Part shown: positions 2,226-48,742 of the stretch, piece by piece
Numbering within the stretch: position 1 is the first letter of the stretch
Layout of the letters: each line of letters begins with the position of its first letter
Source of the DNA: Nemertoderma westbladi
Taxonomy: Eukaryota; Animalia; Xenacoelomorpha
Direction: 5' to 3'
NCBI GenBank assembly: GCA_032718475.1
Contig: JAUCBJ010001146.1
Span: 1-49,190, forward strand
DNA: 49,190 bases
The notes under the pieces: model-generated
What the model saw: the letters and a program-made list of their open reading frames with translations, nothing else
What the model was told of the DNA's origin: nothing
Databases searched by the model: none
Program-made: the position numbers and the translations under genes

Positions 2226-2232
2226 GGCCTCA

Positions 2233-20683: not shown

Positions 20684-20693
20684 TTACTGAGTC

Positions 20694-24200: not shown

Positions 24201-24605
24201 CATCATAGTGAAATAGAGTTGTTTGAGTTCTATCATAGGATCATGATGTATACCTTGAGGATATCGAGTTTCTAAATTTTGTTGACTGGCAACATTGAGA
24301 TATGTTTCTCTTAGAAACTCCAGATATTTGTTGAAGTCGCTGCGTTTATCCGGCTCTTCAACATCTTCTCTTTCGAGTCGGTTTCTAATAGAATTCTTGT
24401 GTTCTATTCTCGGTTTATCGTTACAACTCCGCTGGGTATGATATTTGAATAAAACCATTTCCCTTTCTGTATTGATATCGTCCGTATCGTGTAGGTCGAT
24501 AGGATGACCAGTAGCTAAGAAGTCCATATACGTACCATTACGATGCATATAGCGAGCGGTGAACTTTCTATAATCCAATTCACGCGTAAGTTGCTCCGGG
24601 GACAT
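21260..24605 (-). pseudogene. Outer element accessory gene: unknown N-terminal domains + DEDD 3'-5' exonuclease + CCHC knuckles (degraded, continues at 7119)
   Basis: Consecutive minus ORFs 24605-23616, 23582-22839, 22802-22338, 22495-22157 (+TGA) and 22039-21254. Motifs VVTYDNEG, LEMLFNERILKIGSAVYGD, FVDTQLI, AIYTIFEN, CRLCASRDH, CAYCRLNNSHIFAVC, CHHC. Confidence 0.75.
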
Positions 24606-25550
24606 TAACGACCATCATCCTCCGTAGTAGTTGGACTGGCGTCGCCGCGTATCAAGCTATCGACAAACGCTTGTAAAGGTAGAGTATATCGCTCCCTGAT
24701 ACCAAGGTCATCTTCTATCAACTCAGTCATATCTGCTATATGAGTCTATCAATATTATAATGAGTTTATATTTTAGGCTAGCGGGCGTTGCTGCCTACCC
24801 CTCTTTTGCCCCCGGACAGTGTAAGATCATCAGCGCCGATGTACCGTCGTCGCTGTGTTTTCGCCAACGATGTAGCTACACAACGACAACGATAACCGGC
24901 ACAAGTCACTCCACTGTCCGTCCCAAAGGCTTAGATGTACTTCAGGTTCTTACTGGAGAGTTAGGGCTACTTTCACAATTGCGACTCGCTACTGTAAACA
25001 CACTTTAGCAGTAACATTCACCTATAAACGCACAAATTCAACACAACTGTGACAAACTGTACACATTAGGGCCATTTGTCCGTTAGTCAAGTGCCTTCCA
25101 GAATGTCACTTTATTATTATGTATCCTTGGATACTAACAGTGTGCTATTTATTCCCTATGCTATTCAATGGGGCAAGCTTTCTATTGTTCTTTTAACTCG
25201 CTTATAATTCTAGCGTGGTTGTTGCTATGGTGACATTATGGAAAGCTAGCAGTATAATTAGGGTAATTCTCATGCATACAGATCTGGGATGCTATTTAAT
25301 AGTAATTCTTTAATTGTCAATATCCCTCTTTATATATGATTTTATAAATTTTATCGTCTATTGACTATATATATTGGAGATTCTCGCACACTAATACTTA
25401 ATAGAGTGAATCTCCACTCCCATGATCTATTAATTAAAGGAATTTTGGGAATGTTATAAATTGTATAAAAATGACAATTTATTGAATTCATTAAAAATAT
25501 GAATTTAAATTTATTCACGTAAATTTTATTATTTAATGTTAAATAGACAC

Positions 25551-27336: not shown

Positions 27337-30300
27337 TTACGTTATGGAGTCCCTAGATATTTGTCGGATTAGGGAGGTGGTCGTAGGAAGAGTATCTTGC
27401 CTTCCATAGTTTCCGGACAGTTTTCGGTCTCTTTCCAGTAAACATAAACGACCAGCTGGGCGATTGAGTTGTTGTGTTACTTTCTCCGCTCCCTTGGCCT
27501 GTCTAATCTCCACCGTGGTAAGATGAGGAGGCCATTCATCTTCTTCTTTACTTAGGAAGTCGGGTCCACCTAGCCAACCTGGAGTATCTATCAGTTCTTG
27601 AGGAGTTGCTCCTCTGGAAGCGATGTCGGCTGGATTAATCGTCCCAAGGCAATGTCTCCATTGATCTACATTGGAGTTAATATCGTCATTATCTGAGGAG
27701 TATGGTATTCCCTCAGTTGGATCGTCCACCTCACTGCTCTCCACTTCCCATTTACTTACGTGGTAGACCCATTCTTTGGGCAACCTTTCCATGAGTGTTC
27801 TACGGGACGGACCAGTAAGGTACCAACCTACTCTAGTTCTTCCCGCATAAGTTTGTAGTGGTTGCGTTTGAGCAGGCCGTTTCTCCAATGTCTCAAGTGC
27901 CTCATGCGCATTTTGGCCGATGAGTATTTGCACTCCAGGGTAGTCGGTGTCGAATCTAGGTATTTCAAGCTGCTGGGTGAAATCGTCCTCATCCCAGTTA
28001 TAAGGTTCCACTTGGCTGGTAGCGAAGTTCTTTATCGCCACCATCTTTACTGACCTTATACTATGTTCTCCTAGTTCATCCTGGGGAGTGGACAACGCGC
28101 CTACATAATAATTAGCTATTACAGTAGATTCCCAAACCTGCATAATTCCTGACATGTTTAGCTTAGTTCGGAACTTGGGTTGTCCAGCAAAGATGTCTTC
28201 GGCTAGTACTTTGTCGATGAATGTTCCTGTGCTACCGGAGTCAAGGAGGGCGTTCACTATATAACTCCTTTTAGGTCCGTGGACCCTTAACTGTACTACA
28301 GGAAATTCTCGGATTCCTACATTGGAAGTTGGCACTTTCCAAGATGGTTGTCGATCGGAAGTAGTTAAGGTGAGGTCACTGTCGGTGTCTTTTTCATACG
28401 TAAGTGCTCGATACACTGCGGTATTTATCATGTAACAGGATTCGTCTTGGTCGGAGAATTCGTCCGTATAGAATCCTTCCATCTCAGAACTTTGGTCAGT
28501 GTCGTTCACATCACTGAATTGGACATGCAGTTCGGACTCACTTACCTGACTCGGGCTGTTTCGTTCGAATTCAGTGTGCAACAAGATATGATGTTTCGCA
28601 CCGCACTTTGCACACCTTGTGTCAGAGTAACAGGTTTGCCGCTGGTGTCCTTGTCTGAGGCAATTATAACACAACCGCTTATCCCACATGACTTCCCGTC
28701 TATCCGTTAATGATTTCTTTAGGAATTCATCACACATATTCAAACGGTAGGTCCCGTCACATAGCACACATTTCGGTTTGATGTTACTTACCTTTTTTTG
28801 AATAACATTGTGCACACTCGTTCTTTCCTCGGGCTTTCTTACATGAATTCTCCTAGGAGACGTAGGAGGAGTTTTTCTTACCGGTTCTCTCCCGTCATTG
28901 GTTCGAGACATGAATTTACTTACCTGTTCTTTAGGCATTTTATTGACATAATAAGATCTTTCAGTGTCTTTCCCGCTGTCCTCTCCTTGAGAAGTCTGGC
29001 TTTCGCCATCGTCGGTATAACACACTGGTGTTACTTTTCTCCTAGAAACGGGTTTCTCACTTACCTTGTTTTCCGGTGTCTTCTCTCTGGACTGCTTTAG
29101 GAGTTGTAATTTCACTTCTCCATCCAAGAATGACATGAGATCAGCCATAGTAGGGTCTCGTCGTTGTTGCTCCATCATATATAACACTTTCTTATCCCAG
29201 CGTGTACCTACTCCACCCTTCGGTAAAGTAGAAGCCATGGCTCCAATAACCATGGAACTCTGATATTCATGAGACTTGCCTAACCAATCTAATTGTCTAC
29301 AGATATCTTGAATCTCATCGGAAAACTCTATTATCCCGCTGCTAATGAACTTTCGGGGCGCTACTAGTTTTGCATACAAATATTTAGCTATGTTATTCCT
29401 ATTACCATACCTGATGTTTAGGGTATCCCAAACTTGTCTTAATCCGTCTGGATGTCCAATAAACTTTAACGCCATTAACTTGGGAGATCCTTCCAAGCAC
29501 TCGATGAGGAATCTCAGTTTCTCTCCGTTAGATAACACAGAGTTCTGTATGTTATCTTTATAATATTCATTGAAAGGTAACCATTTCATCTCATCTCCAT
29601 TGAACTTGACTATCTCTCCCACCTTTACCGCTTGACGGGCTTCGGTTCTAGCCATTTGACGAGTAAAACTTTCTTGAGCCATCATGTTATTTAATATCGA
29701 GTTATCGGTATATAAATTTCTCGGATTTTGATCAGGTCTATAGGGAATATCATTGTCAACAGGTTTATAATTACCCTTAATAGGGTTCACTATAGGAGTT
29801 TCTACTTCGCTAGCAGTATAGATGCGTGTAGGCTCCACACCTTGCGCATGAGATACTTCAGACCTAACAGGTTGACACATTGTTACCGGGGGTGGTGGTA
29901 TACCCTTTTGTGTATTTACTAATTTATCGCGTTCTAACGCGATACTTTGCTGCACTTCTTGCAACTCTAACCTACTTTCCCTTACTGTGCCCTTGAACTG
30001 CTTAACAGTCTCCTGCATCTGCCCGAGCAGGAGATCCATCCCCCGCTGTCTCTCATCCACCCAATCAACCGCCGAAGCAGGATTCGCCAACGTTGTAGTG
30101 GGTGGACGAGGGATAACGGGCGACAAATCATTAATATTTCGCTCGGTTCTGTGGGGCACAGGCAGCCTAGTGCTATGAAGAGGGAATTTAGAGATAGGTT
30201 CTGGGAGCACAGGTGTCTCTATCACCGAAGGGGTGATTTCAAGAACAGGCCTAATTATTTCAGGCTCATCTACTATAGTAGGGAGTCTTTCTATTTTAAT

Positions 30301-30756
30301 TATTTGGTCTGTGGGTTCTGTACTACCTAAGCCTGTGTTAGTTAGTTGCCTTCTAATAGTTGGGGGCAAATCAGGCAATTTCTGACGGTGGGACATTCTT
30401 CTACGGCTGCTTAGACGAGATCTATTTCCTCCACCCTCAGGATCGGTGGTATCGCCTTCATCAGATGATGTAAATCCCTGCCGTTTGGGAGTAGATCGTC
30501 TCATCATCTGCATTTGACTAGCTGTTAACTGTTTATTGAAGTTGTCTTGCCTCTCTTGAAGATTTTCCAACTCTAGTTGGGTTGTCTCTTCAGATGCCCT
30601 CCGTTCTGCTTCTGCCACTGCCTCCGCCGCCTTACTTTCCGCTTCGGCCGCTGCTTCTGCCGCCTTTCTTTCCGCTTCGGCCGCTGCTTCTGCCGCCTTT
30701 CTTTCCGCTTCGGCCGCTGCTTCTGCCGCCTTTCTTTCCGCTTCTGCCTTTGCCAT
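27337..30756 (-). CDS. Outer element Gag (DUF1759-like, triple Cys/His box) + protease fused in frame to remnants of RNase H end and integrase end
   Basis: KFNGDEMKWLPF..EKLRFL..LEG, CVLCDG..C / CYNCLRQGHQRQTC / CAKCGAKHHILLH, ALLDSGSTGTFI, then QWRHCLGTINPADIASRG..WLGGPDFL..EWP and TVEIR...RPAGRLCLLE. RT and IN core are absent. Confidence 0.9.
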   Translation of the reverse strand: MAKAEAERKAAEAAAEAERKAAEAAAEAERKAAEAAAEAESKAAEAVAEAERRASEETTQLELENLQERQDNFNKQLTASQMQMMRRSTPKRQGFTSSDEGDTTDPEGGGNRSRLSSRRRMSHRQKLPDLPPTIRRQLTNTGLGSTEPTDQIIKIERLPTIVDEPEIIRPVLEITPSVIETPVLPEPISKFPLHSTRLPVPHRTERNINDLSPVIPRPPTTTLANPASAVDWVDERQRGMDLLLGQMQETVKQFKGTVRESRLELQEVQQSIALERDKLVNTQKGIPPPPVTMCQPVRSEVSHAQGVEPTRIYTASEVETPIVNPIKGNYKPVDNDIPYRPDQNPRNLYTDNSILNNMMAQESFTRQMARTEARQAVKVGEIVKFNGDEMKWLPFNEYYKDNIQNSVLSNGEKLRFLIECLEGSPKLMALKFIGHPDGLRQVWDTLNIRYGNRNNIAKYLYAKLVAPRKFISSGIIEFSDEIQDICRQLDWLGKSHEYQSSMVIGAMASTLPKGGVGTRWDKKVLYMMEQQRRDPTMADLMSFLDGEVKLQLLKQSREKTPENKVSEKPVSRRKVTPVCYTDDGESQTSQGEDSGKDTERSYYVNKMPKEQVSKFMSRTNDGREPVRKTPPTSPRRIHVRKPEERTSVHNVIQKKVSNIKPKCVLCDGTYRLNMCDEFLKKSLTDRREVMWDKRLCYNCLRQGHQRQTCYSDTRCAKCGAKHHILLHTEFERNSPSQVSESELHVQFSDVNDTDQSSEMEGFYTDEFSDQDESCYMINTAVYRALTYEKDTDSDLTLTTSDRQPSWKVPTSNVGIREFPVVQLRVHGPKRSYIVNALLDSGSTGTFIDKVLAEDIFAGQPKFRTKLNMSGIMQVWESTVIANYYVGALSTPQDELGEHSIRSVKMVAIKNFATSQVEPYNWDEDDFTQQLEIPRFDTDYPGVQILIGQNAHEALETLEKRPAQTQPLQTYAGRTRVGWYLTGPSRRTLMERLPKEWVYHVSKWEVESSEVDDPTEGIPYSSDNDDINSNVDQWRHCLGTINPADIASRGATPQELIDTPGWLGGPDFLSKEEDEWPPHLTTVEIRQAKGAEKVTQQLNRPAGRLCLLERDRKLSGNYGRQDTLPTTTSLIRQISRDSIT

Positions 30757-31955
30757 GCTGCTGTTACTGCTGCTGTCTTTCTGTCTTCTATTCGTTTTTT
30801 CTTTACTTGTTCCTCTTGAACCTTAGTGAGGCGGATGCTTTCATCGAATCTACCTTGGTTCGCAGCTAACATATCTACATCGATTGCGTCCAACACAAGT
30901 TTGGCTCCTTCACTATTAGGGCTAAGTCCATCCAGCCGTCTCCTCAACTCTTCGTCCCCTACAAATCGTTGATAGTCTGACAGATAGATGTCAATAGCAT
31001 CCCTCTTATGCGGTTTCTCTGCTGTCGCTTCGCTTTCCACTTGGGAAAAGGTAGCGTCTGTTAATTCTCCATGGGTTGAGCGCTCATCCAACTGAGATTT
31101 CCACGGGGTAGTTCTTTGAACTTGGAGGCTCACCCGCTGAAACCAAGTCTTTACAGGAACTTGCAACGATGTGTCTTGTCTTCTTTTTGAAGCTTCCTCA
31201 AAGGCAGATAAGATTAGTCTGATTCTTAGAATTATTTCCCTAACTTGATAAAGCAGCTTTCCCTGCTCTTGAGGTCCTTGTGGTTGTCGAAACAATTGTT
31301 CCTCTAATCGCTCCATAGAGCTGAAGAATCCCTGCACGTATCCGGCTGCTGACCTCTTCCATACACCTGGATCACAGGTTTCTTTTGTCACTCCCATCCT
31401 GTGAATGTCTTCCCAGGCAGCTTCTGATAAGTCAAACGGGAGTCCAGGTCCGGGGAAGTTCCATTGCGACTTGACAATAGACTCCAGTTCTTCCCTTGTG
31501 TATCCCGCATAACTATCCTTAGTCGATCGCTTACTTCTCGCCCAATCAATCTGGTGCTCCTCCACCGCAATCAATACCCTAGTGAGTACGGCTGCAGGAA
31601 GGATGAGAAGGGGGTCCGAATAAACCATATCCGCCATCTTCGCTCCGCGTTCGGGTGTCAGCTCTACAGTATCCGAACTACTGGAGCTATCGGGCCGCGG
31701 AGAACTAGGCTCTTGGCTAGGATGTTGCTGCTGCTCAACAGCCGCTTCTTGATCCCGCTTGACTTGGGCCCGAGTGCCGATGATAGACCGATGGTGTTGG
31801 ATTAGCTTAGGGTCTGATATTACTACTGGAGGGATGACCTTCCTTACAGTAGGAGGTGAGTTGAACTTGGGTCTTACACGTTCCACACTCCTGTCTGGGT
31901 CACAGATGGTTGTATCTAGGAGACTGTCGGACAGGTTCTGCTTTGTGTCAGACAT
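30573..31955 (-). CDS. Outer element Gag N-terminal part (frameshifted into the next ORF at ~30755)
   Basis: ATG at 31955. One extra base at GCA GCA TGG CA would give ...AAMAKAEAERK. 33-bp AEAERKAAEAA repeats follow. Confidence 0.7.
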   Translation of the reverse strand: MSDTKQNLSDSLLDTTICDPDRSVERVRPKFNSPPTVRKVIPPVVISDPKLIQHHRSIIGTRAQVKRDQEAAVEQQQHPSQEPSSPRPDSSSSSDTVELTPERGAKMADMVYSDPLLILPAAVLTRVLIAVEEHQIDWARSKRSTKDSYAGYTREELESIVKSQWNFPGPGLPFDLSEAAWEDIHRMGVTKETCDPGVWKRSAAGYVQGFFSSMERLEEQLFRQPQGPQEQGKLLYQVREIILRIRLILSAFEEASKRRQDTSLQVPVKTWFQRVSLQVQRTTPWKSQLDERSTHGELTDATFSQVESEATAEKPHKRDAIDIYLSDYQRFVGDEELRRRLDGLSPNSEGAKLVLDAIDVDMLAANQGRFDESIRLTKVQEEQVKKKRIEDRKTAAVTAAWQRQKRKERRQKQRPKRKERRQKQRPKRKERRQKQRPKRKVRRRRQWQKQNGGHLKRQPN

Positions 31956-32084
31956 GTTTGTTTATACGGTTGAATGCCTACTGCTATATTACAGTTAAAG
32001 CAAGTCTAGTAATTCAGTATCACTGTTAGCCTAGTAATTAATTACCGATACTGCTACTCAATGTAGCGTGATATATATACAATA

Positions 32085-32340
32085 TATTAGAATACCGGTA
32101 TACTTATAATATATAGGTATTATTACAGACTAGATTTGTCACAGAATACCGGTATGTAATTCCAGCATAAATATATATAAATATATAATAGGCCTATCTT
32201 GAATACCGGTATACAGCTTACACTTATGGTATATATAAGTATAATTATGGACTAGAATTAAATACAGAATACCGGTATAATTTCAGACTAAATTTATAGA
32301 AATAAATATAATAAGCCTATTGTAAATACCGGTATGTCAA
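32085..32340. repeat. Degenerate tandem repeat in the outer leader with recurrent ATACCGGTAT palindrome
   Basis: ataccggtat at ~32092, 32146, 32203, 32269, 32326. Confidence 0.7.
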
Positions 32341-33267
32341 TTATTTTAAATAATTGAATTTCTGAATTTTTAGGGGTTACTTGGTTACTTTACTTACTTT
32401 ATTACCGTTATTTGAGCAGTAGTCCAACTGATATTGAGACCTAATTGTTGTATCGCAGGCCTACTATTTATAAATCGTTTGAGTTGATTTATAATATCTA
32501 TATACCCGTTTAATGGGTTTTGTCAATATTTGAAATAAATGTTATTATTTCTGGGGGAAGTCACTACACAGATGCTGTGCGCTCTCAGTGAAGTGCTACT
32601 TGTTGGACACTAAAACAAATAATTCTAATTTACCTAGGTTACTTAATACTACAAATTACGTACAATTCGGTGTGAGATTACAATCTCTAAATAAACACAA
32701 AAATTACAAGTGCGAATTTTTAGGGTAATTTTAAAAGAAGTCTACAAACCAGCCTAACAAAGGGTTAGAATATCTGGTTATTACAACGGACAGGGTACTA
32801 CGGTATTTGGAAAATAATAAGCAGTAGTAAATATATTGCGCAGTCCAGATAGGAAAAATACCACCGTCTGACGACCTGTAGCCGTATCGCTATAGGTACT
32901 ACGTTATGTTTCGCGGAGTGTTCCTACCTAGAAGTTAATTACCGCGGTCTACCAGAACCAACGTGCCTATTAACCACTTTACAACACAAATATACTACCT
33001 ACACACTAATCACCTTCGGAAAGCACTGTACACTAAACCCTAGATTAGGTACAAGTACTTGTACAACAATAATCAGTAGTTAAATATACTTGAACAGCTA
33101 AAAGAACCACGGCATCTGCTGGAGTGACCGGGGCACAAAAGTAGTAAGTAAGTAAAAGTAGTACCGGGGTTAATTTAACTATAACGGTATGTATAACAAG
33201 CACAATTACTGTAGGAATAAACTTGGGGATATGAATGTTGCGAATAATCGCATAAACTCTGAATAAT

Positions 33268-33840
33268 AAATATTGCGCTACGCGTACAGACTACTCAAAC
33301 AAAATGCAGATCAAATACTGACAGACTACTATCAAGCCTAAACAAACTACGGTATATGCAGACTCCGAAATGGTTAGTTAGTATGCGTTCTAACCGAGTA
33401 GTACAAATTATTCTTTCGAGGGGGTTTACCTCACAGCACTGGAAGCCCCTACGTTCCTAACCAGCACTTTATCGGACATACACTCTACACGCACCGCAAT
33501 CTCTTCAGACCTAACAACAGCCAGACAACAATCCAGCCTACAAATTATCTAAATAAGAAATATTACGCTACCCGTACAGACTACACAAACAAAATACAAA
33601 CCAAACGCTGGCAGACTACCATCAAGCCTAAATAAACTACAGTATATGCAGACTCCAAAATGGTTAGTTAGTATGCGTTCTAACCGAGTAGTACGACTTA
33701 TTCTTTCGAGGGGGTTTACCTCACAACACTGGAAGCCCCTACGTTCCTAACTAGTACTTTTTCGGACATACGCTCTACACACACTACAATATCTTCAGAC
33801 TTAACAACAGTCAGACAACAGTCCAGCCTACAAATTATCT
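33268..33840. repeat. ~290-bp tandem duplication in the outer leader
   Basis: aaatatt.cgctac.cgtacagactac ... cagcctacaaattatct occurs twice (33268-33550, 33558-33840). Confidence 0.9.
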
Positions 33841-34059: not shown

Positions 34060-34175
34060 TACCGGTCGACCGGTACTTCCGACTTGATTGCTTACGCCGC
34101 AATCAAGAAGCAACAACTGTTATTGTTCTTACCAGAACAATATTAAACTGTATTTATTGCTTACACTGCAATAAA
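34060..34175 (-). other. Structured leader: 16-bp palindrome plus three stem-loops directly after the primer-binding position
   Basis: taccggtcgaccggta (34060-34075), cttgattgc/gcaatcaag (34083-34107), tattgttct/agaacaata (34121-34142), tttattgc/gcaataaa (34153-34175). Confidence 0.8.
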
Positions 34176-34179
34176 GAAT

Positions 34180-34191
34180 TATATCTGTTAT
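34180..34191 (-). promoter_or_regulatory. Non-tRNA primer-binding position of the outer element, complementary to its own LTR
   Basis: Minus strand ATAACAGATATA directly follows the 5' LTR, with no TGG. It is the exact 12-nt complement of LTR 34943-34932 (TATATCTGTTAT). Confidence 0.72.
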
Positions 34192-35385
34192 TGTTCGCGC
34201 TTTTAAGACCTTTAGCAGTTTAACCTGCCAAATTTGGATGTCTTTTAGATTATAAATCGACTTTAGCCTATGACAAGTATTTGATACAAATAAACACTAC
34301 ATTAGCCGAAGCCAGCCTAGCCTATTCACCCGCTGGATATACCCGGGAGACTGGATTCGGAAGCTTAATCTTATTGCTGTGTAAACCTACTGTATTATTC
34401 GACTGATCGTAATATATAATCTCTGACAAATATTATTCACTTTCGGGAAATATTAACAGTTCCTTTAGGACATGGCGCTCTATCTATATAAACAGAGCTA
34501 TGACTTAAACTAGACACAACGGTATGGCTATAGATTCACGTATATGGCGCATTGTTTAGGAGATGCTTTGTTATCAGTCTCAATCATACACACTACTGCA
34601 CAATACTGCACACCGATCTGCCGACCTTCATTAATTTTAGTCACATATAAAGAGAACAACGACGGATACATGTAGTGCCTATGAAATAGCATTAGATTCA
34701 CTTCAAAACCACTTTAATGTAAGTCGCAATCGTTATATGTAACCGGTCTCTCTTACCTTCAGTATATCAAAAGATTGAGGGTTTCGTAATTATTTATCGT
34801 TATTCCAAATATAATAATATTCCATCAACTGATATAATGAATAACCGACAGTAAATAGCAGTACAATGTTACGGTATGAATGTTTATGTGAGTTTGATTG
34901 GTTTGGAAAGTAAGTAAGATGGTATGTACTGATAACAGATATACGTTCTATAATTAAGCCTACTAATGTTGGGCTAAAGCCTGAAAACACAGAGATTCCA
35001 AAGCCGGTCTTCTGGCTGTGTAAAAAGGTGAACATAAACCGTAATGCATTGCGCGACTTCTCGGAGGTTTCTGTACAAAAAGCCAGAGAATCGCTTTGAT
35101 TGGTTGAGTGATTGCACAGAGTGGGCCTGAACAAAGAAACTTCCACGAGTACACCAAATCAGCTGATAGATGTCGTAATCTGAACTACACTGTGTAGAGA
35201 GTATTATGGCGTATTGCGACATAGGATTGCTAGTTGTGTCCGCCAAAGTACACATACAGAAAAATAGCTTTTTATGTCCACTAAAATACCGGTACAGTAA
35301 GGAAACGACTTTTATGTCCTTCAAAACATCTAAAGAGTACTTCGCGGGGAAAAAATGACTAGCTAATCCCGCAAAAGCCTTTACA
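34192..35385 (-). repeat. 5' LTR of the outer element (1194 bp)
   Basis: Uninterrupted copy of the split LTR at 3914-6277. Imperfect terminal inverted repeat tgt-N4-gctttt. Followed by GTAGT. Confidence 0.9.
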
Positions 35386-35390
35386 GTAGT

Positions 35391-36545
35391 ATATCCAGCC
35401 GTCTGCAGTTCCATAGTCTGCCGCTAGAGGGCGTATGATCTGAAAATTAACATCTTCTCTAACTTTGTTATTTTCATTCCGAAAAGGTTTAAATTCGGTT
35501 GGCATCTACTACGGCATAGGCCATATCTTTTGCAGAGTCATAGAGTAGTCTGAAGTTCCCCTGTCTGCCGCTAGAGGGCGTATCATTTGAAAATTTACAT
35601 CTTCTCTAACTTTGTTATTTACAATCCGCAAAACTATGAAGTTATATTGCTTAAGAGTTCTAAGGGGCGAGCCATGAGGCAAGATGTTTGAGGCTTTGCT
35701 TAAGAGTTTTAAGGGGCGAGCCATGAGGCAAGATGTTTGAGGCTTATTTAGATATATTATTACTTAATCTTGACCCCCCAATCGGCATCTACTACGGCAT
35801 AGGCCATATCTTTTGCGGAGACATAGAGTAGTCTGAAGTTCCCCTGTGTGTCGCTAGAGGGCGTATTATTTGAAAATTAACATCTTCTCTAACTTTGTTA
35901 TTTTCATTCCGAAAAGGTTTAAATTCGGTAGGCATCTACTACGGCATAGGCCATATCTTTTGCGGAGTCATAGAGTAGTCTGAAGTTCCCCTGTCTGCCG
36001 CTAGAGGGCGTATCATTTGAAAATTTACATCTTCTCTAACTTTGTTATTTACAATCCGCAAAACTATGAAGTTATATTGCTTAAGAGTTCTAAGGGGCGA
36101 GCCATGAGGCAAGATGTTTGAGGCTTTGCTTAAGAGTTTTAAGGGGCGAGCCATGAGGCAAGATGTTTGAGGCTTATTTAGATATATTATTACTTAATCT
36201 TGACCCCCCAATCGGCATCTACTACGGCATAGGCCATATCTTTTGCGGAGACATAGAGTAGTCTGAAGTTCCCCTGTGTGTCGCTAGAGGGCGTATTATT
36301 TGAAAATTAACATCTTCTCTAGCTTTGTTATTTACAATCCGTAAAACTATGAAGTTATATTGCTTAAGAGTTCTAAGGGGCGAGCCATGAGGCAAGATGT
36401 TTGAGGCTTATTTAGATATATTATTACTTAATTTTGACCCCCCAATCGGTATCTATTACAATATGGGCTATATCTTTTGCAGAGCCACAGAGTATTCTGA
36501 AGTTCCCAGTCTGCCGCTAGAGGCCGAAATGCCTCAAAGTGAAAA
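35391..36545 (+). repeat. Tandem ~430-bp repeat built from ~146-bp subunits, related to the 26-27 kb element
   Basis: ggcatctactacggcatagg... at 35501 and 35931. Shares cgctagagggcg and ggggcgagcca motifs with 26062-27036. Confidence 0.75.
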
Positions 36546-36631
36546 CCATATGGTAGCCATGAATTGGATACTAGGCAATAATACTGCATTTTGCAACGTT
36601 AGGCCTATTTCTGACCGAACGAAAACTGCCC

Positions 36632-36705
36632 TGGTTCATGCAGGGATCGAACCCATGACATACGGGAGATGTGATTTCAAGGCAACCACTACACCAAGGT
36701 GGAAC
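36632..36705 (-). pseudogene. tRNA-like sequence (tRNA pseudogene or tRNA-derived SINE head)
   Basis: Minus strand A box TGGTGTAGTGG (36696-36686), B box GGTTCGATCC (36653-36644), gttc/gaac acceptor-like ends followed by CA. The anticodon arm does not fold well. Confidence 0.55.
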
Positions 36706-36762
36706 AGTAACCTTCGAATTTGTTCGTTGACGTTCGAATTTGTTATTTAAGACATGACACAT

Positions 36763-37197
36763 ACTATGCCTCACTGAGGCATATACTATGACTCACTGAG
36801 GCATAGACTATGCCTCACTGAGGCACTAAGGCATAGACTATGCCTCACTGAGGCACTGAGGCATAGACTATGCCTCACTGAGGCAATGAGGCATAGACTA
36901 TGCCTCACTGAGGCACTGAGGCATAGACTACGCCTCACTGAGGCAATGAGGCATAGACTATGCCTCACTGAGGCATAGACTATGCCTCACTGAGGCACTG
37001 AGGCATAGACTATGCCTCACTGAGGCATAGTATGACTCAAGCATAGACTATGACTCGGGCATAGACTATGCCTCACTGAGGCATAGACTATGCCTCACTG
37101 AGGCACTGAGGCATAGACTATGCCTCACTGAGGCATAGACTATGACTCACTGAGGCATAGACTATGCCACAATTAGGCATAGACTATTCAGGCATAG
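36763..37197. repeat. Palindromic minisatellite (22/30-bp units, TGAGGCATAG-A-CTATGCCTCA)
   Basis: Each unit is a 10-bp inverted repeat around one central base. Units are interspersed with 8-bp ctgaggca. Confidence 0.92.
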
Positions 37198-37649: not shown

Positions 37650-40600
37650 AAGGACGTCCGGATTGTACTGTTATTAGATTTTAGTTTAAGAATGTGGCAC
37701 CGCGCCCGGATTGTAGTTTTATTAGACATTTAGTTTAAGAACGTGGCACCGCGCCCGGTTTGTAGTTTTCTTAGATATTTAGTTTAAGAACATGGCTCCA
37801 CGCCTGGTTTGTAGTTTTATTAGACATTTAGTTTGAGAACGTGGCACCGCGCCCGGTTTGTAGTTTTATTAGACATTTAGTTTAAGAACGTGGCACCGCG
37901 CCTGGTTTGTAGTTTTCTTAGATATTTAGTTTAAGAACATGGCTCCGCGCCTGGTTTGTAGTTTTATTAGACATTTAGTTTAAGAACATGGCACCGTGCC
38001 CGGTTTGTAGTTTTATTAGACATTTAGTTTAAGAACGTGGCACCGCGCCCGGTTTGTAGTTTTCTTAGATATTTAGTTTAAGAACATGGCACCGTGCCCG
38101 GTTTGTAGTTTTATTAGACATTTAGTTTAAGAACGTGGCACCGCGCCCGGTTTGTAGTTTTCTTAGATATTTAGTTTAAGAACGTGGCACCGCGCCCGGT
38201 TTGTAGTTTTATTAGATATTTAGTATAAGAACGTGGCACCGCGCCCGGTTTGTAGTTTTCTTAGATATTTAGTTTAAGAACGTGGCACCGCGCCCGGTTT
38301 GTAGTTTTATTAGACATTTAGTTTGAGAACGTGGCACCGCGCCCGGTTTGTAGTTTTATTAGACATTTAGTTTAAGAACGTGGCACCGCGCCTGGTTTGT
38401 AGTTTTCTTAGATATTTAGTTTAAGAACATGGCTCCGCGCCTGGTTTGTAGTTTTATTAGACATTTAGTTTAAGAACATGGCACCGTGCCCGGTTTGTAG
38501 TTTTATTAGACATTTAGTTTAAGAACGTGGCACCGCGCCCGGTTTGTAGTTTTCTTAGATATTTAGTTTAAGAACATGGCACCGTGCCCGGTTTGTAGTT
38601 TTATTAGACATTTAGTTTAAGAACGTGGCACCGCGCCCGGTTTGTAGTTTTCTTAGATATTTAGTTTAAGAACATGGCACCGTGCCCGGTTTGTAGTTTT
38701 ATTAGACATTTAGTTTAAGAACGTGGCACCGCGCCCGGTTTGTAGTTTTCTTAGATATTTAGTTTAAGAACGTGGCACCGCGCCCGGTTTGTAGTTTTAT
38801 TAGATATTTAGTATAAGAACGTGGCACCGCGCCCGGTTTGTAGTTTTATTAGACATTTATTTTAAGAACGTGGCACCGCGCCCGGTTTGTAGTTTTCTTA
38901 GATATTTAGTTTAAGAACGTGGCACCGCGCCCGGTTTGTAGTTTTATTAGACATTTAGTTTGAGAACGTGGCACCGCGCCCGGTTTGTAGTTTTATTAGA
39001 CATTTAGTTTAAGAACGTGGCACCGCGCCTGGTTTGTAGTTTTCTTAGATATTTAGTTTAAGAACATGGCACCGTGCCCGGTTTGTAGTTTTATTAGACA
39101 TTTAGTTTAAGAACGTGGCACCGCGCCCGGTTTGTAGTTTTCTTAGATATTTAGTTTAAGAACATGGCACCGTGCCCGGTTTGTAGTTTTATTAGACATT
39201 TAGTTTAAGAACGTGGCACCGCGCCCGGTTTGTAGTTTTCTTAGATATTTAGTTTAAGAACGTGGCACCGCGCCCGGTTTGTAGTTTTATTAGATATTTA
39301 GTATAAGAACGTGGCACCGCGCCCGGTTTGTAGTTTTATTAGACATTTAGTTTAAGAACGTGGCACCGCGCCCGGTTTGTAGTTTTCTTAGATATTTAGT
39401 TTAAGAACGTGGCACCGCGCCCGGTTTGTAGTTTTATTAGACATTTAGTTTGAGAACGTGGCACCGCGCCCGGTTTGTAGTTTTATTAGACATTTAGTTT
39501 AAGAACGTGGCACCGCGCCTGGTTTGTAGTTTTCTTAGATATTTAGTTTAAGAACATGGCTCCGCGCCTGGTTTGTAGTTTTATTAGACATTTAGTTTAA
39601 GAACATGGCACCGTGCCCGGTTTGTAGTTTTATTAGACATTTAGTTTAAGAACGTGGCACCGCGCCCGGTTTGTAGTTTTCTTAGATATTTAGTTTAAGA
39701 ACATGGCACCGTGCCCGGTTTGTAGTTTTATTAGACATTTAGTTTAAGAACGTGGCACCGCGCCCGGTTTGTAGTTTTCTTAGATATTTAGTTTAAGAAC
39801 ATGGCACCGCGCCCGGTTTGTAGTTTTATTAGACATTTAGTTTAAGAACGTGGCACCGCGCCCGGTTTGTAGTTTTCTTAGATATTTAGTTTAAGAACGT
39901 GGCACCGCGCCCGGTTTGTAGTTTTATTAGATATTTAGTATAAGAACGTGGCACCGCGCCCGGTTTGTAGTTTTATTAGACATTTAGTTTAAGAACGTGG
40001 CACCGCGCCCGGTTTGTAGTTTTCTTAGATATTTAGTTTAAGAACGTGGCACCGCGCCCGGTTTGTAGTTTTATTAGACATTTAGTTTGAGAACGTGGCA
40101 CCGCGCCCGGTTTGTAGTTTTATTAGACATTTAGTTTGAGAACGTGGCACCGCGCCCGGTTTGTAGTTTTATTAGACATTTAGTTTGAGAACGTGGCACC
40201 GCGCCCGGTTTGTAGTTTTATTAGACATTTAGTTTAAGAACGTGGCACCGCGCCCGGTTTGTAGTTTTCTTAGATATTTAGTTTAAGAACGTGGCACCGC
40301 GCCCGGTTTGTAGTTTTATTAGATATTTAGTATAAGAACGTGGCACCGCGCCCGGTTTGTAGTTTTATTAGACATTTAGTTTAAGAACGTGGGTCCGCAC
40401 CCAGTTTGTAGTTTTATAAGACATTTAGTTTAAGAACGTGGGTCCGCGCCCGGTTTGTAGTTTTATTAGACATTTAGTTTAAGAACGTGGCTCCACGCCT
40501 GGTTTGTAGTTTTATTAGACATTTAGTTTGAGAACGTGGCACCGCGCCCGGTTTGTAGTTTTATTAGATATTTAGTTTAAGAACGTGGGTCCGCACCCAG

Positions 40601-43600
40601 TTTGTAGTTTTATAAGACATTTAGTTTAAGAACGTGGGTCCGCGCCCAGTTTGTAGTTTTATTAGACATTTAGTTTAAGAACGTGGCTCCACGCCTGGTT
40701 TGTAGTTTTATTAGATATTTAGTTTAAGAACGTGGGTCCGCACCCAGTTTGTAGTTTTATAAGACATTTAGTTTAAGAACGTGGGTCCGCGCCCGGTTTG
40801 TAGTTTTATTAGATATTTAGTTTAAGAACGTGGCACCGCGCCGGTTTGTAGTTTTATTAGATATTTAGTTAAAGAACGTGGCTCCACGCCTGGTTTGTAG
40901 TTTTATTAGACATTTAGTTTGAGAACGTGGGTCCGCGCCCGGTTTGTAGTTTTATTAGACATTTAGTTTGAGAACGTGGCACCGCGCCCGGTTTGTAGTT
41001 TTATTAGACATTTAGTTTAAGAACGTGGCTCCACGCCTGGTTTGTAGTTTTATTAGACATTTAGTTTGAGAACGTGGCACCGCGCCCGGTTTGTAGTTTT
41101 ATTAGACATTTAGTTTGAGAACGTGGCACCGCGCCCGGTTTGTAGTTTTATTAGACATTTAGTTTAAGAACGTGGCTCCGCGCCCGGTTTGTAGTTTTAT
41201 TAGACATTTAGTTTGAGAACGTGGCACCGCGCCCGGTTTGTAGTTTTATTAGACATTTAGTTTGAGAACGTGGCACCGCGCCCGGTTTGTAGTTTTATTA
41301 GACATTTAGTTTAAGAACGTGGCTCCACGCCTGGTTTGTAGTTTTATTAGACATTTAGTTTGAGAACGTGGCACCGCGCCCGGTTTGTAGTTTTATTAGA
41401 CATTTAGTTTAAGAACGTGGCTCCGCGCCCGGTTTGTAGTTTTATTAGACATTTAGTTTAAGAACGTGGCTCCGCGCCCAGTTTGTAGTTTTATTAGACA
41501 TTTAGTTTAAGAACGTGGCTCCGCGCCCAGTTTGTAGTTTTATTAGACATTTAGTTTAAGAACGTGGCTCCACGCCTGGTTTGTAGTTTTATTAGACATT
41601 TAGTTTGAGAACGTGGCACCGCGCCCGGTTTGTAGTTTTATTAGACATTTAGTTTAAGAACGTGGCTCCGCGCCCGGTTTGTAGTTTTATTAGACATTTA
41701 GTTTAAGAACGTGGCTCCGCGCCCAGTTTGTAGTTTTATTAGACATTTAGTTTAAGAACGTGGCTCCACGCCTGGTTTGTAGTTTTATTAGACATTTAGT
41801 TTGAGAACGTGGGTCCGCACCCAGTTTGTAGTTTTATAAGACATTTAGTTTAAGAACGTGGGTCCGCGCCCGGTTTGTAGTTTTATTAGACATTTAGTTT
41901 AAGAACGTGGCTCCGCGCCCGGTTTGTAGTTTTATTAGACATTTAGTTTGAGAACGTGGCACTGCGCCCGGTTTGTAGTTTTATTAGACATTTAGTTTGA
42001 GAACGTGGCACCGCGCCCGGTTTGTAGTTTTATAAGACATTTAGTTTAAGAACGAGGGTCCGCGCCTGGTTTGTAGTTTTATTAGATATTTAGTATAAGA
42101 ACGTGGCACCGCGCCCGGTTTGTAGTTTTATTTTATATTTAGTTTAAGAACGTGGCACCGCGCCCGGTTTGTAGTTTTATTAGATATTTAGTTTAAGAAC
42201 GTGGCTCCGCGCCCAGTTTGTAGTTTTATTAGACATTTAGTTTGAGAACGTGGCACCGCGCCCGGTTTGTAGTTTTATTAGATATTTAGTTTAAGAACGT
42301 GGCTCCGCGCCCAGTTTGTAGTTTTATTAGACATTTAGTTTAAGAACGTGGCTCCACGCCTGGTTTGTAGTTTTATTAGACATTTAGTTTGAGAACGTGG
42401 CACCGCGCCCGGTTTGTAGTTTTATTAGATATTTAGTATAAGAACGTGGCACCGCGCCCGGTTTGTAGTTTTATTTTATATTTAGTTTAAGAACGTGGCA
42501 CCGCGCCCGGTTTGTAGTTTTATTAGATATTTAGTTTAAGAACGTGGCTCCACGCCCAGTTTGTAGTTTTATTAGACATTTAGTTTAAGAACGTGGCTCC
42601 ACGCCTGGTTTGTAGTTTTATTAGACATTTAGTTTGAGAACGTGGCACCGCGCCCGGTTTGTAGTTTTATTAGACATTTAGTTTAAGAACGTGGGTCCGC
42701 GCTCAGTTTGTAGTTTTATTAGACATTTAGTTTAAGAACGTGGCTCCGCGCCCGGTTTGTAGTTTTATTAGACATTTAGTTTAAGAACGTGGCTCCGCGC
42801 CCAGTTTGTAGTTTTATTAGACATTTAGTTTAAGAACGTGGCTCCACGCCCAGTTTGTAGTTTTATTAGACATTTAGTTTAAGAACGTGGCTCCGCGCCC
42901 AGTTTGTAGTTTTATTAGACATTTAGTTTAAGAACGTGGCACCGCGCCAGGTTTGTAGTTTTATTAGATATTTAGTTTATGAACGTGGCACCGCGCCCGG
43001 TTTGTAGTTTTATTAGATATTTAGTTTATGAACGTGGCACCGCGCCCGGTTTTTACTGTTATTAGATTATTTAGTTTAAGAACGTGGCACCGCGCCCGTT
43101 TTGTAGTGTTATTAGATATTTAGTTTAAGAATATGGCGCCGCGCCCGGTTTGTAGTTTTATTAGATATTTAGTTTAAGAATATGGCGCCGCGCCCGGTTT
43201 GTAGTTTTATTAGACATTTAGTTTGAGAACGTGGCACCGCGCCCGGTTTGTAGTTTTATTAGACATTTAGTTTAAGAACGTGGCTCCGCGCCCGGTTTGT
43301 AGTTTTATTAGACATTTAGTTTAAGAACGTGGCTCCGCGCCCAGTTTGTAGTTTTACTAGACATTTAGTTTAAGAACGTGGCTCCACGCCCAGTTTGTAG
43401 TTTTATTAGACATTTAGTTTAAGAACGTGGCTCCGCGCCCGGTTTGTAGTTTTATTAGACATTTAGTTTAAGAACGTGGCACCACGCCCGGTTTGTAGTT
43501 TTATTAGATATTTAGTATAAGAACGTGGCACCGCGCCCGGTTTGTAGTTTTATTAGATATTTAGTTTATGAACGTGGCACCGCGCCCGGTTTGTAGTTTT

Positions 43601-46600
43601 ATTAGATATTTAGTTTATGAACGTGGCACCGCGCCCGGTTTCTACTGTTATTAGATTATTTAGTTTAAGAACGTGGCACCGCGCCCGGTTTGTAGTGTTA
43701 TTAGATATTTAGTTTAAGAATATGGCGCCGCGCCCGGTTTGTAGTTTTATTAGATATTTTGTATAAGAACGTGGCACCGCACCCGGTTTGTAGTTTTATA
43801 TTATATTTAGTTTAAGAACGTGGCACCACGCCCGGTTTGTAGTTTTATTAGATATTTTGTATAAGAAGTTTGTAGTTTTATGAGATATTTAGTATAAGAA
43901 ACGTGGCACGGCGCCCGGTTTGTAGTTTTATTAGATATTTAGTTTAAGAACGTGGCACCGCGCCCAGTTTGTAGTTTCATTAGAAATTTAGTTTAAGAAC
44001 GTGGCACCGCGCCCGGTTTGTAGTTTTATATTATATTTAGTTTAAGAACGTGGCACCACGCCCGGTTTGTAGTTTTATTAGATATTTTGTATAAGAACGT
44101 GGCACCGCGCCCGGTTTGTAGTTTTATATTATATTTAGTTTAAGAACGTGGCGCCGCGCCCGGTTTGTAGTTTTATATAATATTTAGTTTAAGAACGTGG
44201 CACCACGCCCGGTTTGTAGTTTTATTAGATATTTAGTATAAAAACGTGGCACCGCGCCCGGTTTGTAGTTTTATATTATATTTAGTTTAAGAACGTGGCG
44301 CCGCGCCCGGTTTGTAGTTTTATATTATATTTAGTTTAAGAACGTGGCACCACGCCCGGTTTGTAGTTTTATTAGATATTTAGTATAAAAACGTGGCACC
44401 GCGCCCGGTTTGTAGTTTTATTAGATATTTAGTTTAAGAACGTGGCACCGCGCCCAGTTTGTAGTTTTATTAGAAATTTAGTTTAAGAACGTGCCACCGC
44501 GCCCGGTTTGTAGTTTTATATTATATTTAGTTTAAGAACGTGGCACCACGCCCGGTTTGTAGTTTTATTAGATATTTTGTATAAGAACGTGGCACCGCGC
44601 CCGGTTTGTAGTTTTATATTATATTTTGTATAAGAACGTGGCGCCGCGCCCGGTTTGTAGTTTTATATTATATTTAGTTTAAGAACGTGGCACCACGCCC
44701 GGTTTGTAGTTTTATTAGATATTTAGTATAAGAACGTGGCACCGCGCCCGGTTTGTAGTTTTATTAGATATTTAGTTTAAGAACGTGGCACCGCGCCCGG
44801 TTTGTAGTTTTATTAGACATTTAGTTTAAGAACGTGGCTCCGCGCCCAGTTTGTAGTTTTATTAGACATTTAGTTTAAGAACGTGGCTCCACGCCTGGTT
44901 TGTAGTTTTATTAGACATTTAGTTTGAGAACGTGGGTCCGCACCCAGTTTGTAGTTTTATAAGACATTTAGTTTAAGAACGTGGGTCCGCGCCCGGTTTG
45001 TAGTTTTATTAGACATTTAGTTTAAGAACGTGGCTCCGCGCCCGGTTTGTAGTTTTATTAGACATTTAGTTTGAGAACGTGGCACTGCGCCCGGTTTGTA
45101 GTTTTATTAGACATTTAGTTTGAGAACGTGGCACCGCGCCCGGTTTGTAGTTTTATAAGACATTTAGTTTAAGAACGAGGGTCCGCGCCTGGTTTGTAGT
45201 TTTATTAGATATTTAGTATAAGAACGTGGCACCGCGCCCGGTTTGTAGTTTTATTTTATATTTAGTTTAAGAACGTGGCACCGCGCCCGGTTTGTAGTTT
45301 TATTAGATATTTAGTTTAAGAACGTGGCTCCGCGCCCAGTTTGTAGTTTTATTAGACATTTAGTTTGAGAACGTGGCACCGCGCCCGGTTTGTAGTTTTA
45401 TTAGATATTTAGTTTAAGAACGTGGCTCCGCGCCCAGTTTGTAGTTTTATTAGACATTTAGTTTAAGAACGTGGCTCCACGCCTGGTTTGTAGTTTTATT
45501 AGACATTTAGTTTGAGAACGTGGCACCGCGCCCGGTTTGTAGTTTTATTAGATATTTAGTATAAGAACGTGGCACCGCGCCCGGTTTGTAGTTTTATTTT
45601 ATATTTAGTTTAAGAACGTGGCACCGCGCCCGGTTTGTAGTTTTATTAGATATTTAGTTTAAGAACGTGGCTCCACGCCCAGTTTGTAGTTTTATTAGAC
45701 ATTTAGTTTAAGAACGTGGCTCCACGCCTGATTTGTAGTTTTATTAGACATTTAGTTTGAGAACGTGGCACCGCGCCCGGTTTGTAGTTTTATTAGACAT
45801 TTAGTTTAAGAACGTGGGTCCGCGCTCAGTTTGTAGTTTTATTAGACATTTAGTTTAAGAACGTGGCTCCGCGCCCGGTTTGTAGTTTTATTAGACATTT
45901 AGTTTAAGAACGTGGCTCCGCGCCCAGTTTGTAGTTTTATTAGACATTTAGTTTAAGAACGTGGCTCCACGCCCAGTTTGTAGTTTTATTAGACATTTAG
46001 TTTAAGAACGTGGCTCCGCGCCCGGTTTGTAGTTTTATTAGACATTTAGTTTAAGAACGTGGCACCGCGCCAGGTTTGTAGTTTTATTAGATATTTAGTT
46101 TATGAACGTGGCACCGCGCCCGGTTTGTAGTTTTATTAGATATTTAGTTTATGAACGTGGCACCGCGCCCGGTTTTTACTGTTATTAGATTATTTAGTTT
46201 AAGAACGTGGCACCGCGCCCGTTTTGTAGTGTTATTAGATATTTAGTTTAAGAATATGGCGCCGCGCCCGGTTTGTAGTTTTATTAGATATTTAGTTTAA
46301 GAATATGGCGCCGCGCCCGGTTTGTAGTTTTATTAGACATTTAGTTTGAGAACGTGGCACCGCGCCCGGTTTGTAGTTTTATTAGACATTTAGTTTAAGA
46401 ACGTGGGTCCGCGCTCAGTTTGTAGTTTTATTAGACATTTAGTTTGAGAACGTGGCTCCGCGCCCGGTTTGTAGTTTTATTAGACATTTAGTTTAAGAAC
46501 GTGGCTCCGCGCCCAGTTTGTAGTTTTACTAGACATTTAGTTTAAGAACGTGGCTCCACGCCCAGTTTGTAGTTTTATTAGACATTTAGTTTAAGAACGT

Positions 46601-48742
46601 GGCTCCGCGCCCGGTTTGTAGTTTTATTAGACATTTAGTTTAAGAACGTGGCACCACGCCCGGTTTGTAGTTTTATTAGATATTTAGTATAAGAACGTGG
46701 CACCGCGCCCGGTTTGTAGTTTTATTAGATATTTAGTTTATGAACGTGGCACCGCGCCCGGTTTGTAGTTTTATTAGATATTTAGTTTATGAACGTGGCA
46801 CCGCGCCCGGTTTCTACTGTTATTAGATTATTTAGTTTAAGAACGTGGCACCGCGCCCGGTTTGTAGTGTTATTAGATATTTAGTTTAAGAATATGGCGC
46901 CGCGCCCGGTTTGTAGTTTTATTAGATATTTTGTATAAGAACGTGGCACCGCACCCGGTTTGTAGTTTTATATTATATTTAGTTTAAGAACGTGGCACCA
47001 CGCCCGGTTTGTAGTTTTATTAGATATTTTGTATAAGAAGTTTGTAGTTTTATGAGATATTTAGTATAAGAAACGTGGCACGGCGCCCGGTTTGTAGTTT
47101 TATTAGATATTTAGTTTAAGAACGTGGCACCGCGCCCAGTTTGTAGTTTCATTAGAAATTTAGTTTAAGAACGTGGCACCGCGCCCGGTTTGTAGTTTTA
47201 TATTATATTTAGTTTAAGAACGTGGCACCACGCCCGGTTTGTAGTTTTATTAGATATTTTGTATAAGAACGTGGCACCGCGCCCGGTTTGTAGTTTTATA
47301 TTATATTTAGTTTAAGAACGTGGCGCCGCGCCCGGTTTGTAGTTTTATATAATATTTAGTTTAAGAACGTGGCACCACGCCCGGTTTGTAGTTTTATTAG
47401 ATATTTAGTATAAAAACGTGGCACCGCGCCCGGTTTGTAGTTTTATATTATATTTAGTTTAAGAACGTGGCGCCGCGCCCGGTTTGTAGTTTTATATTAT
47501 ATTTAGTTTAAGAACGTGGCACCACGCCCGGTTTGTAGTTTTATTAGATATTTAGTATAAAAACGTGGCACCGCGCCCGGTTTGTAGTTTTATTAGATAT
47601 TTAGTTTAAGAACGTGGCACCGCGCCCAGTTTGTAGTTTTATTAGAAATTTAGTTTAAGAACGTGCCACCGCGCCCGGTTTGTAGTTTTATATTATATTT
47701 AGTTTAAGAACGTGGCACCACGCCCGGTTTGTAGTTTTATTAGATATTTTGTATAAGAACGTGGCACCGCGCCCGGTTTGTAGTTTTATATTATATTTTG
47801 TATAAGAACGTGGCGCCGCGCCCGGTTTGTAGTTTTATATTATATTTAGTTTAAGAACGTGGCACCACGCCCGGTTTGTAGTTTTATTAGATATTTAGTA
47901 TAAGAACGTGGCACCGCGCCCGGTTTGTAGTTTTATTAGATATTTAGTTTAAGAACGTGGCACCGCGCCCAGTTTGTAGTTTTATTAGAAATTTAGTTTA
48001 AGAACGTGGCGCCGCGCCCAGTTTGTAGTTTTATATTATATTTAGTATAAGAACGTGGCACCGCGCCCGGTTTGTAGTTTTATTAGATATTTAGTTTAAG
48101 AACGTGGCACCGCGCCCAGTTTGTAGTTTTATTAGAAATTTAGTTTAAGAACGTGGCACCACGCCCGGTTTTTAGTTTCATGTTATATTTAGTTTAAGAA
48201 CGTGGCGCCGCGCCCGGTTTGTAGTTTTATATTATATTTAGTTTAAGAATGTGGCACCGCGCCCGGTTTGTAGTTTTATTAGATATTTAGTATAAGAACG
48301 TGGCACCGTGCCCGGTTTGTAGTTTTATTAGATATTTAGTTTAATAATGTGGCGCCGCACCCGGTTTGTAGTTTTATTAGATATTTAGTTTAAGAACGTG
48401 GCGCCGCTCCCGGTTTGTAGTTTTATTAAATATTTAGTTAAAGAACGTGGCACCGCGCCCGGTTTGTAGTTTTTTTAGATATTTGTTTAAGAACATGGCA
48501 CCATGCCCGGTTTGTAGTTTTATTAGATATTTAGTTTAAGAACGTGGCACCGCGGCCGGTTTTTAGTTTTATTAGATATTTAGTTTAAGAACGTGGCGCC
48601 GCACCCGGTTTGTAGTTTTATTAAATATTTAGTTAAAGACGTGGCACCGCGCCCGGTTTGTAGTTTTATTAGATATTTAGTTTAAGAACGTGGCACCGCG
48701 CCCGGTTTGTAGTATTATTAGATATTTAGTTTAAGAACGTGG
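37650..48742. repeat. 49-bp satellite DNA array (~11.1 kb, ~225 monomers)
   Basis: Consensus gtggcaccgcgcccggtttgtagttttattagacatttagtttaagaac, with degenerate monomers at both edges. Confidence 0.98.

Follow-up and report, generated by a model that had tools for sequence, protein, structure and literature searches.

How does a BEL/Pao retrotransposon start its minus-strand DNA when no tRNA primer-binding site follows its LTR? The question is raised by the window (the whole stretch of 49,190 nt analyzed here), in which we found a nested pair of BEL/Pao LTR retrotransposons, both on the minus strand. The ICTV profile of the Belpaoviridae gives an 18-nt site for tRNA-Arg or tRNA-Gly and priming by tRNA (PMC8742986). 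An earlier note on this DNA had claimed that the outer element carries a site complementary to its own LTR and that its lineage primes itself. From the comparisons below, we consider it fairly probable that the outer element is a member of a BEL/Pao group in which minus-strand DNA is primed with a 5' piece of the element's own RNA. The outer element is delimited by the following features.

34192-35385, minus strand: outer 5' LTR of 1194 nt, TGT...GCGAACA; self-BLAST against the 3' LTR 98.8% and 96.4%, target site duplication (TSD) ACTAC.
3914-6277, minus strand: outer 3' LTR, split by a solo LTR; purine tract from 6278 onward.
4160-5318, plus strand: solo LTR of a sister family, inserted antisense in the outer 3' LTR; 78% identity, TSD CAAAT.
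27337-31961, minus strand: outer gag-protease frames, frameshifted and joined to an RNase H tail; PF03564 (DUF1759), E 1.2e-10.

The end of the outer 5' LTR is fixed independently by the end of the 3' LTR (3914) together with the 5-bp TSD ACTAC. The final two bases of the sister solo LTR (4160-5318) are TA and not CA. The best tblastn matches of the outer frames are BEL/Pao loci, down to E 1.5e-19, and neither tblastn nor the domain search found a remnant of reverse transcriptase (RT) or integrase in this copy. The outer copy is therefore non-autonomous and would need enzymes from another copy. Past the position of pol lie about 4 kb of broken extra coding sequence (21254-24614 and 6356-7006, minus strand), the frames of which gave no Pfam match, and the 2.2-kb leader contains tandem duplications of 290 nt (33258-33840) and about 123 nt (32109-32335). 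The element is inserted at the edge of a satellite region, made of a 49-nt unit in about 227 copies with 90% matches (37658-48742) and of shorter arrays of 430 and 22/52 nt (35401-37187). The window also holds what is by its appearance a Penelope-like element (1-3333, plus strand), with an RT domain (PF00078) and 473-nt direct repeats 98.5% identical; a frame downstream has, by eye, the look of a GIY-YIG endonuclease and has no Pfam match.

The region that follows the outer 5' LTR and its match within this LTR are described by five features.

34180-34191, minus strand: non-tRNA primer-binding site, flush with the LTR end, ATAACAGATATA, as read from the sequence.
34932-34943, minus strand: LTR nt 443-454, TATATCTGTTAT, exact complement of 34191-34180, where the self-primer is predicted to end on its 3' side; putative cut at 34932/34931.
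34153-34175, minus strand: predicted hairpin of 8 bp downstream of the site, kept in the second unit by a two-sided change.
34083-34128, minus strand: second unit, diverged and again made of an LTR end, a site and a hairpin, with only the first 7 nt of the site in common.
34211-34232, minus strand: hairpin predicted in U5, at 19 nt from the LTR end; its arms are also paired in the sister LTR on inspection of the alignment.

The positions given earlier for the site (34191-34180), for its LTR complement (34943-34932) and for the sister copy (4592-4603) are all right, and the two properties then ascribed to the site were confirmed. First, the 12-nt complementarity is exact and the base after the 12-mer is a C, opposite the last A of the outer LTR, so that the duplex ends flush at the LTR boundary. 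Second, no TGG directly follows the LTR: none occurs within 57 nt and the first one lies 58 nt downstream. Besides 34943-34932 and the sister solo LTR, TATATCTGTTAT is found in the outer 3' LTR (5824-5835). Dinucleotide shuffles of the outer LTR reached at least 12 nt at offset 0 in 3 cases out of 5000 (8 out of 5000 at offsets 0-3), and none of the 12,821 internal positions taken as mock sites reached 12 nt. The outer match is thus real and not due to chance. A primer built by splicing was also considered for the outer element and rejected, the best spliced match being 11 nt with a weak donor and hence shorter than the contiguous 12. Neither ARAGORN nor Rfam disclosed an element-encoded tRNA-like primer in the window, which has no tRNA and no Rfam match of note.

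The earlier note had also taken support from the perfect conservation of the 12-mer in the diverged sister LTR. The conservation is exact and even belongs to a 40-nt run (34969-34930) identical in both LTRs, between flanking segments of 72% and 61% identity. However, it does not constitute independent support, because the same block has a second conserved partner inside the LTR (see below) and because the two LTRs agree fully in 249 of the 1183 12-nt windows (21%) anyway.

We then turned to the outer family in public data, using assembled contigs only, from organism A (X1, X2 and X4) and organism B (X5); contigs less than 80% alike were excluded, and distant variants are invisible. Thousands of contigs align to the family (8132 in X1), which denotes many diverged copies and gives no copy number, and the interval 34895-35005 is covered by 256, 54, 11 and 2 contigs. 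Contig depth and the run shared with the sister LTR together delimit one further feature.

34931-34986, minus strand: conserved island with the primer segment, starting at TTTCAG and ending one base past the 12-mer.

The TTTCAG at the island start is a candidate initiator near 34982, or a candidate 3' splice site. Below 34931, the summed contig depth drops about tenfold and loose ends begin in 4/4 runs. The C right after the 12-mer is kept among contigs, the next base being A or T. Within the island, substitutions at a level of at least 1% affect only 34971 and 34972, and none falls inside the 12-mer. The site itself varies: X1 and X2 contigs join the outer LTR end directly to the second unit (joint 34128-34202), a third version, identical over the first 7 nt, is found in an X5 contig, and the site is constant over these 7 nt only among the variants seen. 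A contig row with the window's site plus one inserted base makes up roughly one third of the depth at this place in X1 and two thirds in X2; the 12-nt site is therefore not private to the window copy. At position 8, a minor variant of the LTR (3 contigs in X1, 1 contig in X2) fits the letter found there in the second unit and in the X5 variant. This agreement, read from unphased contigs, is a hint of covariation between LTR and site. An LTR variant seen in X5 changes position 6 and has no known site partner. Exact DNA patterns of the outer LTR had no match in viral contigs or in metagenome contigs.

The inner element offers a second case within the same window.

20724-21259, minus strand: inner 5' LTR of 536 nt, without sequence relationship to the outer LTR; 98.4% to 7120-7655, TSD GTCAA.
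7120-7655, minus strand: inner 3' LTR, from self-comparison with the 5' LTR.
12121-20683, minus strand: inner gag-pol in several broken frames; PF03564, PF13650, PF05380, PF17921, PF00665 and PF18701.
20893-20926, minus strand: predicted primer arm, by pairing, with a 9-nt core (20901-20893) and a 13-bp outer helix (20926-20914).
20690-20723, minus strand: non-tRNA site, by duplex prediction, with the partners of the core (20723-20715) and of the outer helix (20702-20690).

Its domains PF03564, PF05380, PF17921 and PF18701 lie in this order, with the integrase after the RT-RNase H, and its broken frames cover DUF1759, protease, RT-RNase H and integrase. Two extra frames lie past the integrase (9900-10919 and 8611-10557, minus strand). 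In one of them, a resemblance to a Werner-type 3'-5' exonuclease is seen (atlas score of 0.94 to a cluster with PF01612 on 38% of its members), with no Pfam or PDB match; the other has Cys/His knuckles and is weakly similar to the outer frame 21254-22156 (E 0.01). The first 60 nt after the inner LTR contain no TGG. They begin with a flush self-match of 9 nt, a length reached in 24 of 5000 shuffles and at 17 of 12,971 mock sites. The predicted duplex extends to 28 bp (9+4+2+13) and, at -34.3 kcal/mol, ranks first among 4394 windows of the element (runner-up -24.7, mean -12.1, sd 3.4 kcal/mol), the arm length having been picked after the extension had been seen. In the predicted fold, the 9-bp core has a probability of 0.02, at a cost of about 3 kcal/mol. 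Judging from a TATA-like word and two TCAGTT words, transcription is likely to start about 74 nt upstream of the predicted cut; 124 nt downstream of this cut stands an ATTAAA.

The earlier note had proposed to compare the site and the LTR in related families. With the inner RT-RNase H aligned to 6 homologues, we retrieved 80 of 421 confirmed metagenome-contig loci, in 53 clusters; the search with the RT alignment returned no relative in viral contigs. We scored the 23 clusters with a readable LTR end and left out 30 of the 53, which were incomplete or unresolved. The score was the longest perfect match of the site (offset 0-4) to its own LTR, either contiguous or across one GT..YAG intron. With any GT donor, a match of at least 10 nt was obtained for 18 of the 23 families against 32 of 600 cross-family pairs, the LTR end being fixed by a second LTR copy in 5 of the 23 (scores 7, 11, 7, 15 and 12) and chosen by eye from the ..ACA motif, partly after matches had been seen, in the others. 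With a consensus-like donor, the figures were 17 of 23 against 22/600, or 13/582 when close kin were removed from the control; some of the scored families are indeed close kin (for example L027, L039 and L050). Among the 18 matching families, 2 have a contiguous match and 16 need one GT..YAG intron. A match that exists only after predicted splicing is the strongest sign that the pairing partner would be the element's own RNA. Moreover, the sites differ among relatives yet each matches its own LTR, so that one host RNA cannot fit all. A match to the own LTR is present in 17-18 of 23 relatives, mostly across such a predicted junction.

The remaining families comprise L020 (7 nt, or 8 with its own 3' LTR), L075 (9 nt), L058, whose LTR is truncated, L037 (7 nt) and L054. 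The intron-less 3' LTR of L037 gives 11 contiguous nt; on this contig, the 5' LTR (1-326) bears the intron and the 3' LTR (6700-7103) lacks it and carries the contiguous 11-nt primer, a difference due either to intron loss or to a chimeric assembly. L054 is the sole case, among the 23 scored families, of a normal TGG tRNA site. Such a canonical site in relatives had been named as a sign against self-priming; this single instance lies outside the clade of the self-matching loci, which all fall, in a quick tree of 67 rows, within one 48-row clade (SH-aLRT 94). In this tree, which has no named reference clades, the inner RT forms a long branch (2.08) outside the 48-row clade, a placement without reliable support; all RT homologues retrieved with it are of the BEL/Pao type. 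In eight families (L002, L005, L010, L041, L043, L045, L061 and L079), the match is not flush and begins 2-4 nt past the LTR end, which suggests that trimming of the ends by the integrase differs between lineages.

Two further signals inform on the geometry. In 21 of 23 relatives, the last two letters of the predicted primer are AC; in the outer element they are AT, and its site carries the corresponding change. In 17 of these 21 AC-ending relatives, the cut is followed, at a distance of 3-133 nt, by a hexamer AATAAA or ATTAAA, so that R would extend beyond it, a requirement of strand transfer. The same downstream position of the hexamer disfavours, in the relatives, the other possibility considered, namely that the natural poly(A) end acts as the primer. 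As for the 5' end of the RNA, TATA-like words in 8 of 18 relatives examined, as well as in the inner element, would place the start 46-178 nt upstream of the cut and never within 45 nt. The primer is thus likely to be a 5' RNA piece of 45-180 nt rather than the 11 nt of Tf1. Altogether, the claim that this lineage self-primes gains support from the inner element and from 17-18 of 23 relatives; it stays an inference and, at variance with Tf1, the primer is probably not the first 12 nt of the transcript.

We propose the following scheme. In the outer element, transcription would start upstream of the segment, probably near 34982, which would give a primer of about 50 nt from the 5' end of the RNA. 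The LTR segment would pair with the site that follows the LTR, and the RNA would be cut just 3' of the segment (34932/34931), probably by the RNase H of the element, a step borrowed from Tf1. RT would then extend the new 3'-OH through U5 and R, the first letters being TGT. Later on, the primer end would be returned to the site during plus-strand synthesis, by which site and segment would keep matching each other while families diverge. For most relatives, predicted splicing of an LTR intron would create the primer end; in both window elements it is contiguous and, in the outer one, the segment is predicted to be masked by an alternative fold of the LTR and freed upon refolding. Two additional features take part in this alternative fold.

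34530-34578, minus strand: further partner with which the primer block can pair within the LTR (34578-34569, 34545-34538 and 34534-34530), from the predicted fold; predicted competitor of the site.
34259-34268, minus strand: 3' arm of a predicted long-range helix with 34981-34972, pair probability 0.99.

The internal partner is predicted to bind the primer block more strongly than the site does (-18.8 vs -14.1 kcal/mol), and its pairs are kept in the sister LTR (9/10, 8/8 and 5/5). An unrelated gag window reaches -18.7 kcal/mol with the same block, so that the energy of the internal partner alone is not unique. In the long-range helix, 10/10 pairs are kept in the sister LTR, one of them via a two-sided change. 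When the RNA is made to start at 34982, 34970 or 35100, the primer:site duplex has a probability of 0.0 in the predicted fold, and forcing it from a start at 34982 costs a predicted 11 kcal/mol; it appears, at about 0.79, only with an RNA starting at 34943. These values have to be read knowing that the long-range helix and the primer:site duplex cross, forming a pseudoknot that is beyond the folding program. As a whole, the R-U5 region of the outer element is not unusually stable (z -1.4 vs 25 shuffles). A splicing gate in the outer LTR was examined and found unsupported, since without the candidate intron 34625-34511, which holds the internal partner, the primer:site duplex is still missing from the predicted fold. 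The internal fold can explain the conserved island, including the conserved C, without any priming; alternatively, it would be part of a switch. On this basis, one could tentatively imagine that a large BEL/Pao clade has given up tRNA priming for a gated self-primer, that is, a long capped 5' piece whose priming end is blocked until processing. The gate would be intron splicing in most families and, in the outer family, an RNA switch with a conserved decoy in the 740-nt R-U5, which would keep hold of the primer up to a refolding of the RNA in the particle. This extension is a good deal less secure than self-priming itself.

The location of the transcription start is the point at which another reading of the outer LTR comes closest. 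A TATAGA at 34952 would place the start about 9 nt downstream of the cut, and no further TATA box precedes the primer segment in the outer LTR. The 12-mer could then lie just upstream of a start near 34930-34922 and be absent from the 5' end of the RNA, the self-primer being provided by the 3' LTR copy or by a second packaged RNA. The TATA-like word indeed stands 22 nt before a TCAGT (34932-34928), and conservation stops at 34931. Against this, the base after 34931 is A or T depending on the copy, so that the initiator-like word is not kept; the helix 34981-34972/34268-34259, with its two-sided change, fits an RNA that includes 34981; and the inner element and 8/18 relatives have their predicted start 46-178 nt upstream of the cut. 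We thus regard this possibility as unlikely. No TATA-like word in the outer LTR fits an 11-nt primer. In the outer element, 740 nt separate the cut from the LTR end, compared with 58-247 nt among the 21 relatives whose primer ends in AC, and the outer and sister LTRs have no poly(A) hexamer in common.

One would also wonder whether a host RNA, either a tRNA half or another small RNA, could be the primer, the LTR match being a structural helix of the leader comparable to the U5-leader stems of retroviruses. Priming by tRNA-Arg or tRNA-Gly is what the ICTV gives for the family (PMC8742986), half-tRNA priming is known in Ty1/copia lineages according to the available part of PMC6317226, and the constancy of the first 7 nt of the outer site would suit such a primer. 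However, there is no TGG near either LTR end of the window elements. The sites of the relatives vary from family to family and fit in each case the LTR of the same element, as a rule through a splice junction, and nothing would oblige a structural helix to stop precisely at the point where DNA synthesis has to begin. A host primer appears very unlikely to us. The least probable explanation is that the outer match is a by-product or a relic, the segment being kept for its internal partner and the 12 nt being partly chance on a 7-nt core: the stronger predicted internal pairing kept in the sister LTR, the gag window at -18.7 kcal/mol, the 7 nt in common between site variants and the lack of RT in this copy would agree with it, but the flush register with its low shuffle rate, the same geometry in the inner element and relatives, and the presence of the window's site, with one inserted base, in X1 and X2 contigs speak against it.

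Self-priming by a piece of the element's own RNA, our preferred reading, would mean that tRNA-independent priming exists in all three superfamilies of LTR retrotransposons and reaches a widespread animal clade. It would also explain the primer sites missing from annotations that demand a TGG. Furthermore, the BEL/Pao elements concerned would escape control by 3' tRNA fragments, and the intron-split families would tie the start of reverse transcription to host splicing. The reference description holds BEL/Pao elements to be tRNA-primed and their replication to be poorly understood (PMC8742986). We found no report of self-priming in BEL/Pao in the literature searched, which consisted of listings and abstract starts, with subscription journals, Repbase reports and supplements outside its scope. 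Term look-ups in the BEL/Pao surveys PMC3118150, PMC8556966, PMC2774666 and PMC6238403 returned no mention of primer sites or tRNA; in the searched text of the survey PMC554778 only PCR primers are mentioned, and in that of PMC8220671 primer sites appear only generically.

A comparison with known systems helps to situate these elements. Both window elements agree with the BEL/Pao profile of the Belpaoviridae in their paired TG..CA LTRs (0.5 and 1.2 kb), the 5-bp TSD, the purine tract, the DUF1759 gag and the protease; the RT-RNase H (Peptidase_A17) and the integrase in last position are present in the inner element, the outer one having only an RNase H tail. In contrast to this profile, the 18-nt tRNA site is absent from both, and only 1/23 scored relatives has one. 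The fungal GalEa copia elements and the bivalve TRIMs, as far as the consulted part of PMC6934838 describes them, likewise have no tRNA site and show a hairpin after the 5' repeat, as does the outer element. In that source, however, their inverted repeat is wholly internal and is assigned no mechanism, whereas here the partner lies in the LTR and in a priming register. Self-priming has been described for Tf1/sushi elements and predicted for Tcn1 and for the plant copia lineage TAR, according to the accessible portions of PMC6317226, PMC7175516, PMC4600332 and PMC3601003. For TAR (Houba, Osr-1), the prediction came from sequence complementarity, as stated in the consulted part of PMC6317226; TAR differs from our elements in belonging to the plant Ty1/copia, and an intron-split primer is unmentioned in that part of the paper. 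The closest parallel is with Tf1, Tf2 and Tj1 and, more generally, with the Tf1/sushi group of Ty3/gypsy chromoviruses, including Tcn1, which also lack a tRNA site and have a site complementary to their own LTR. Unlike them, the window elements are BEL/Pao, with BEL/Pao-specific Pfam domains and no Ty3/gypsy chromoviral pol. In Tf1, as reported in the accessible portions of PMC7175516 and PMC4600332, the self-primer is 11 nt long and RNase H cuts between bases 11 and 12. The BEL/Pao segment would be not the first 11 nt of the transcript but probably, as estimated from TATA-like words, the end of a 45-180-nt piece. In addition, and again at variance with Tf1, most BEL/Pao relatives are intron-split and the outer element has a second partner inside its LTR. 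What is most likely new with respect to the Tf1 mechanism is thus the family, the probable length of the primer, and its intron-split or competing-fold arrangement.
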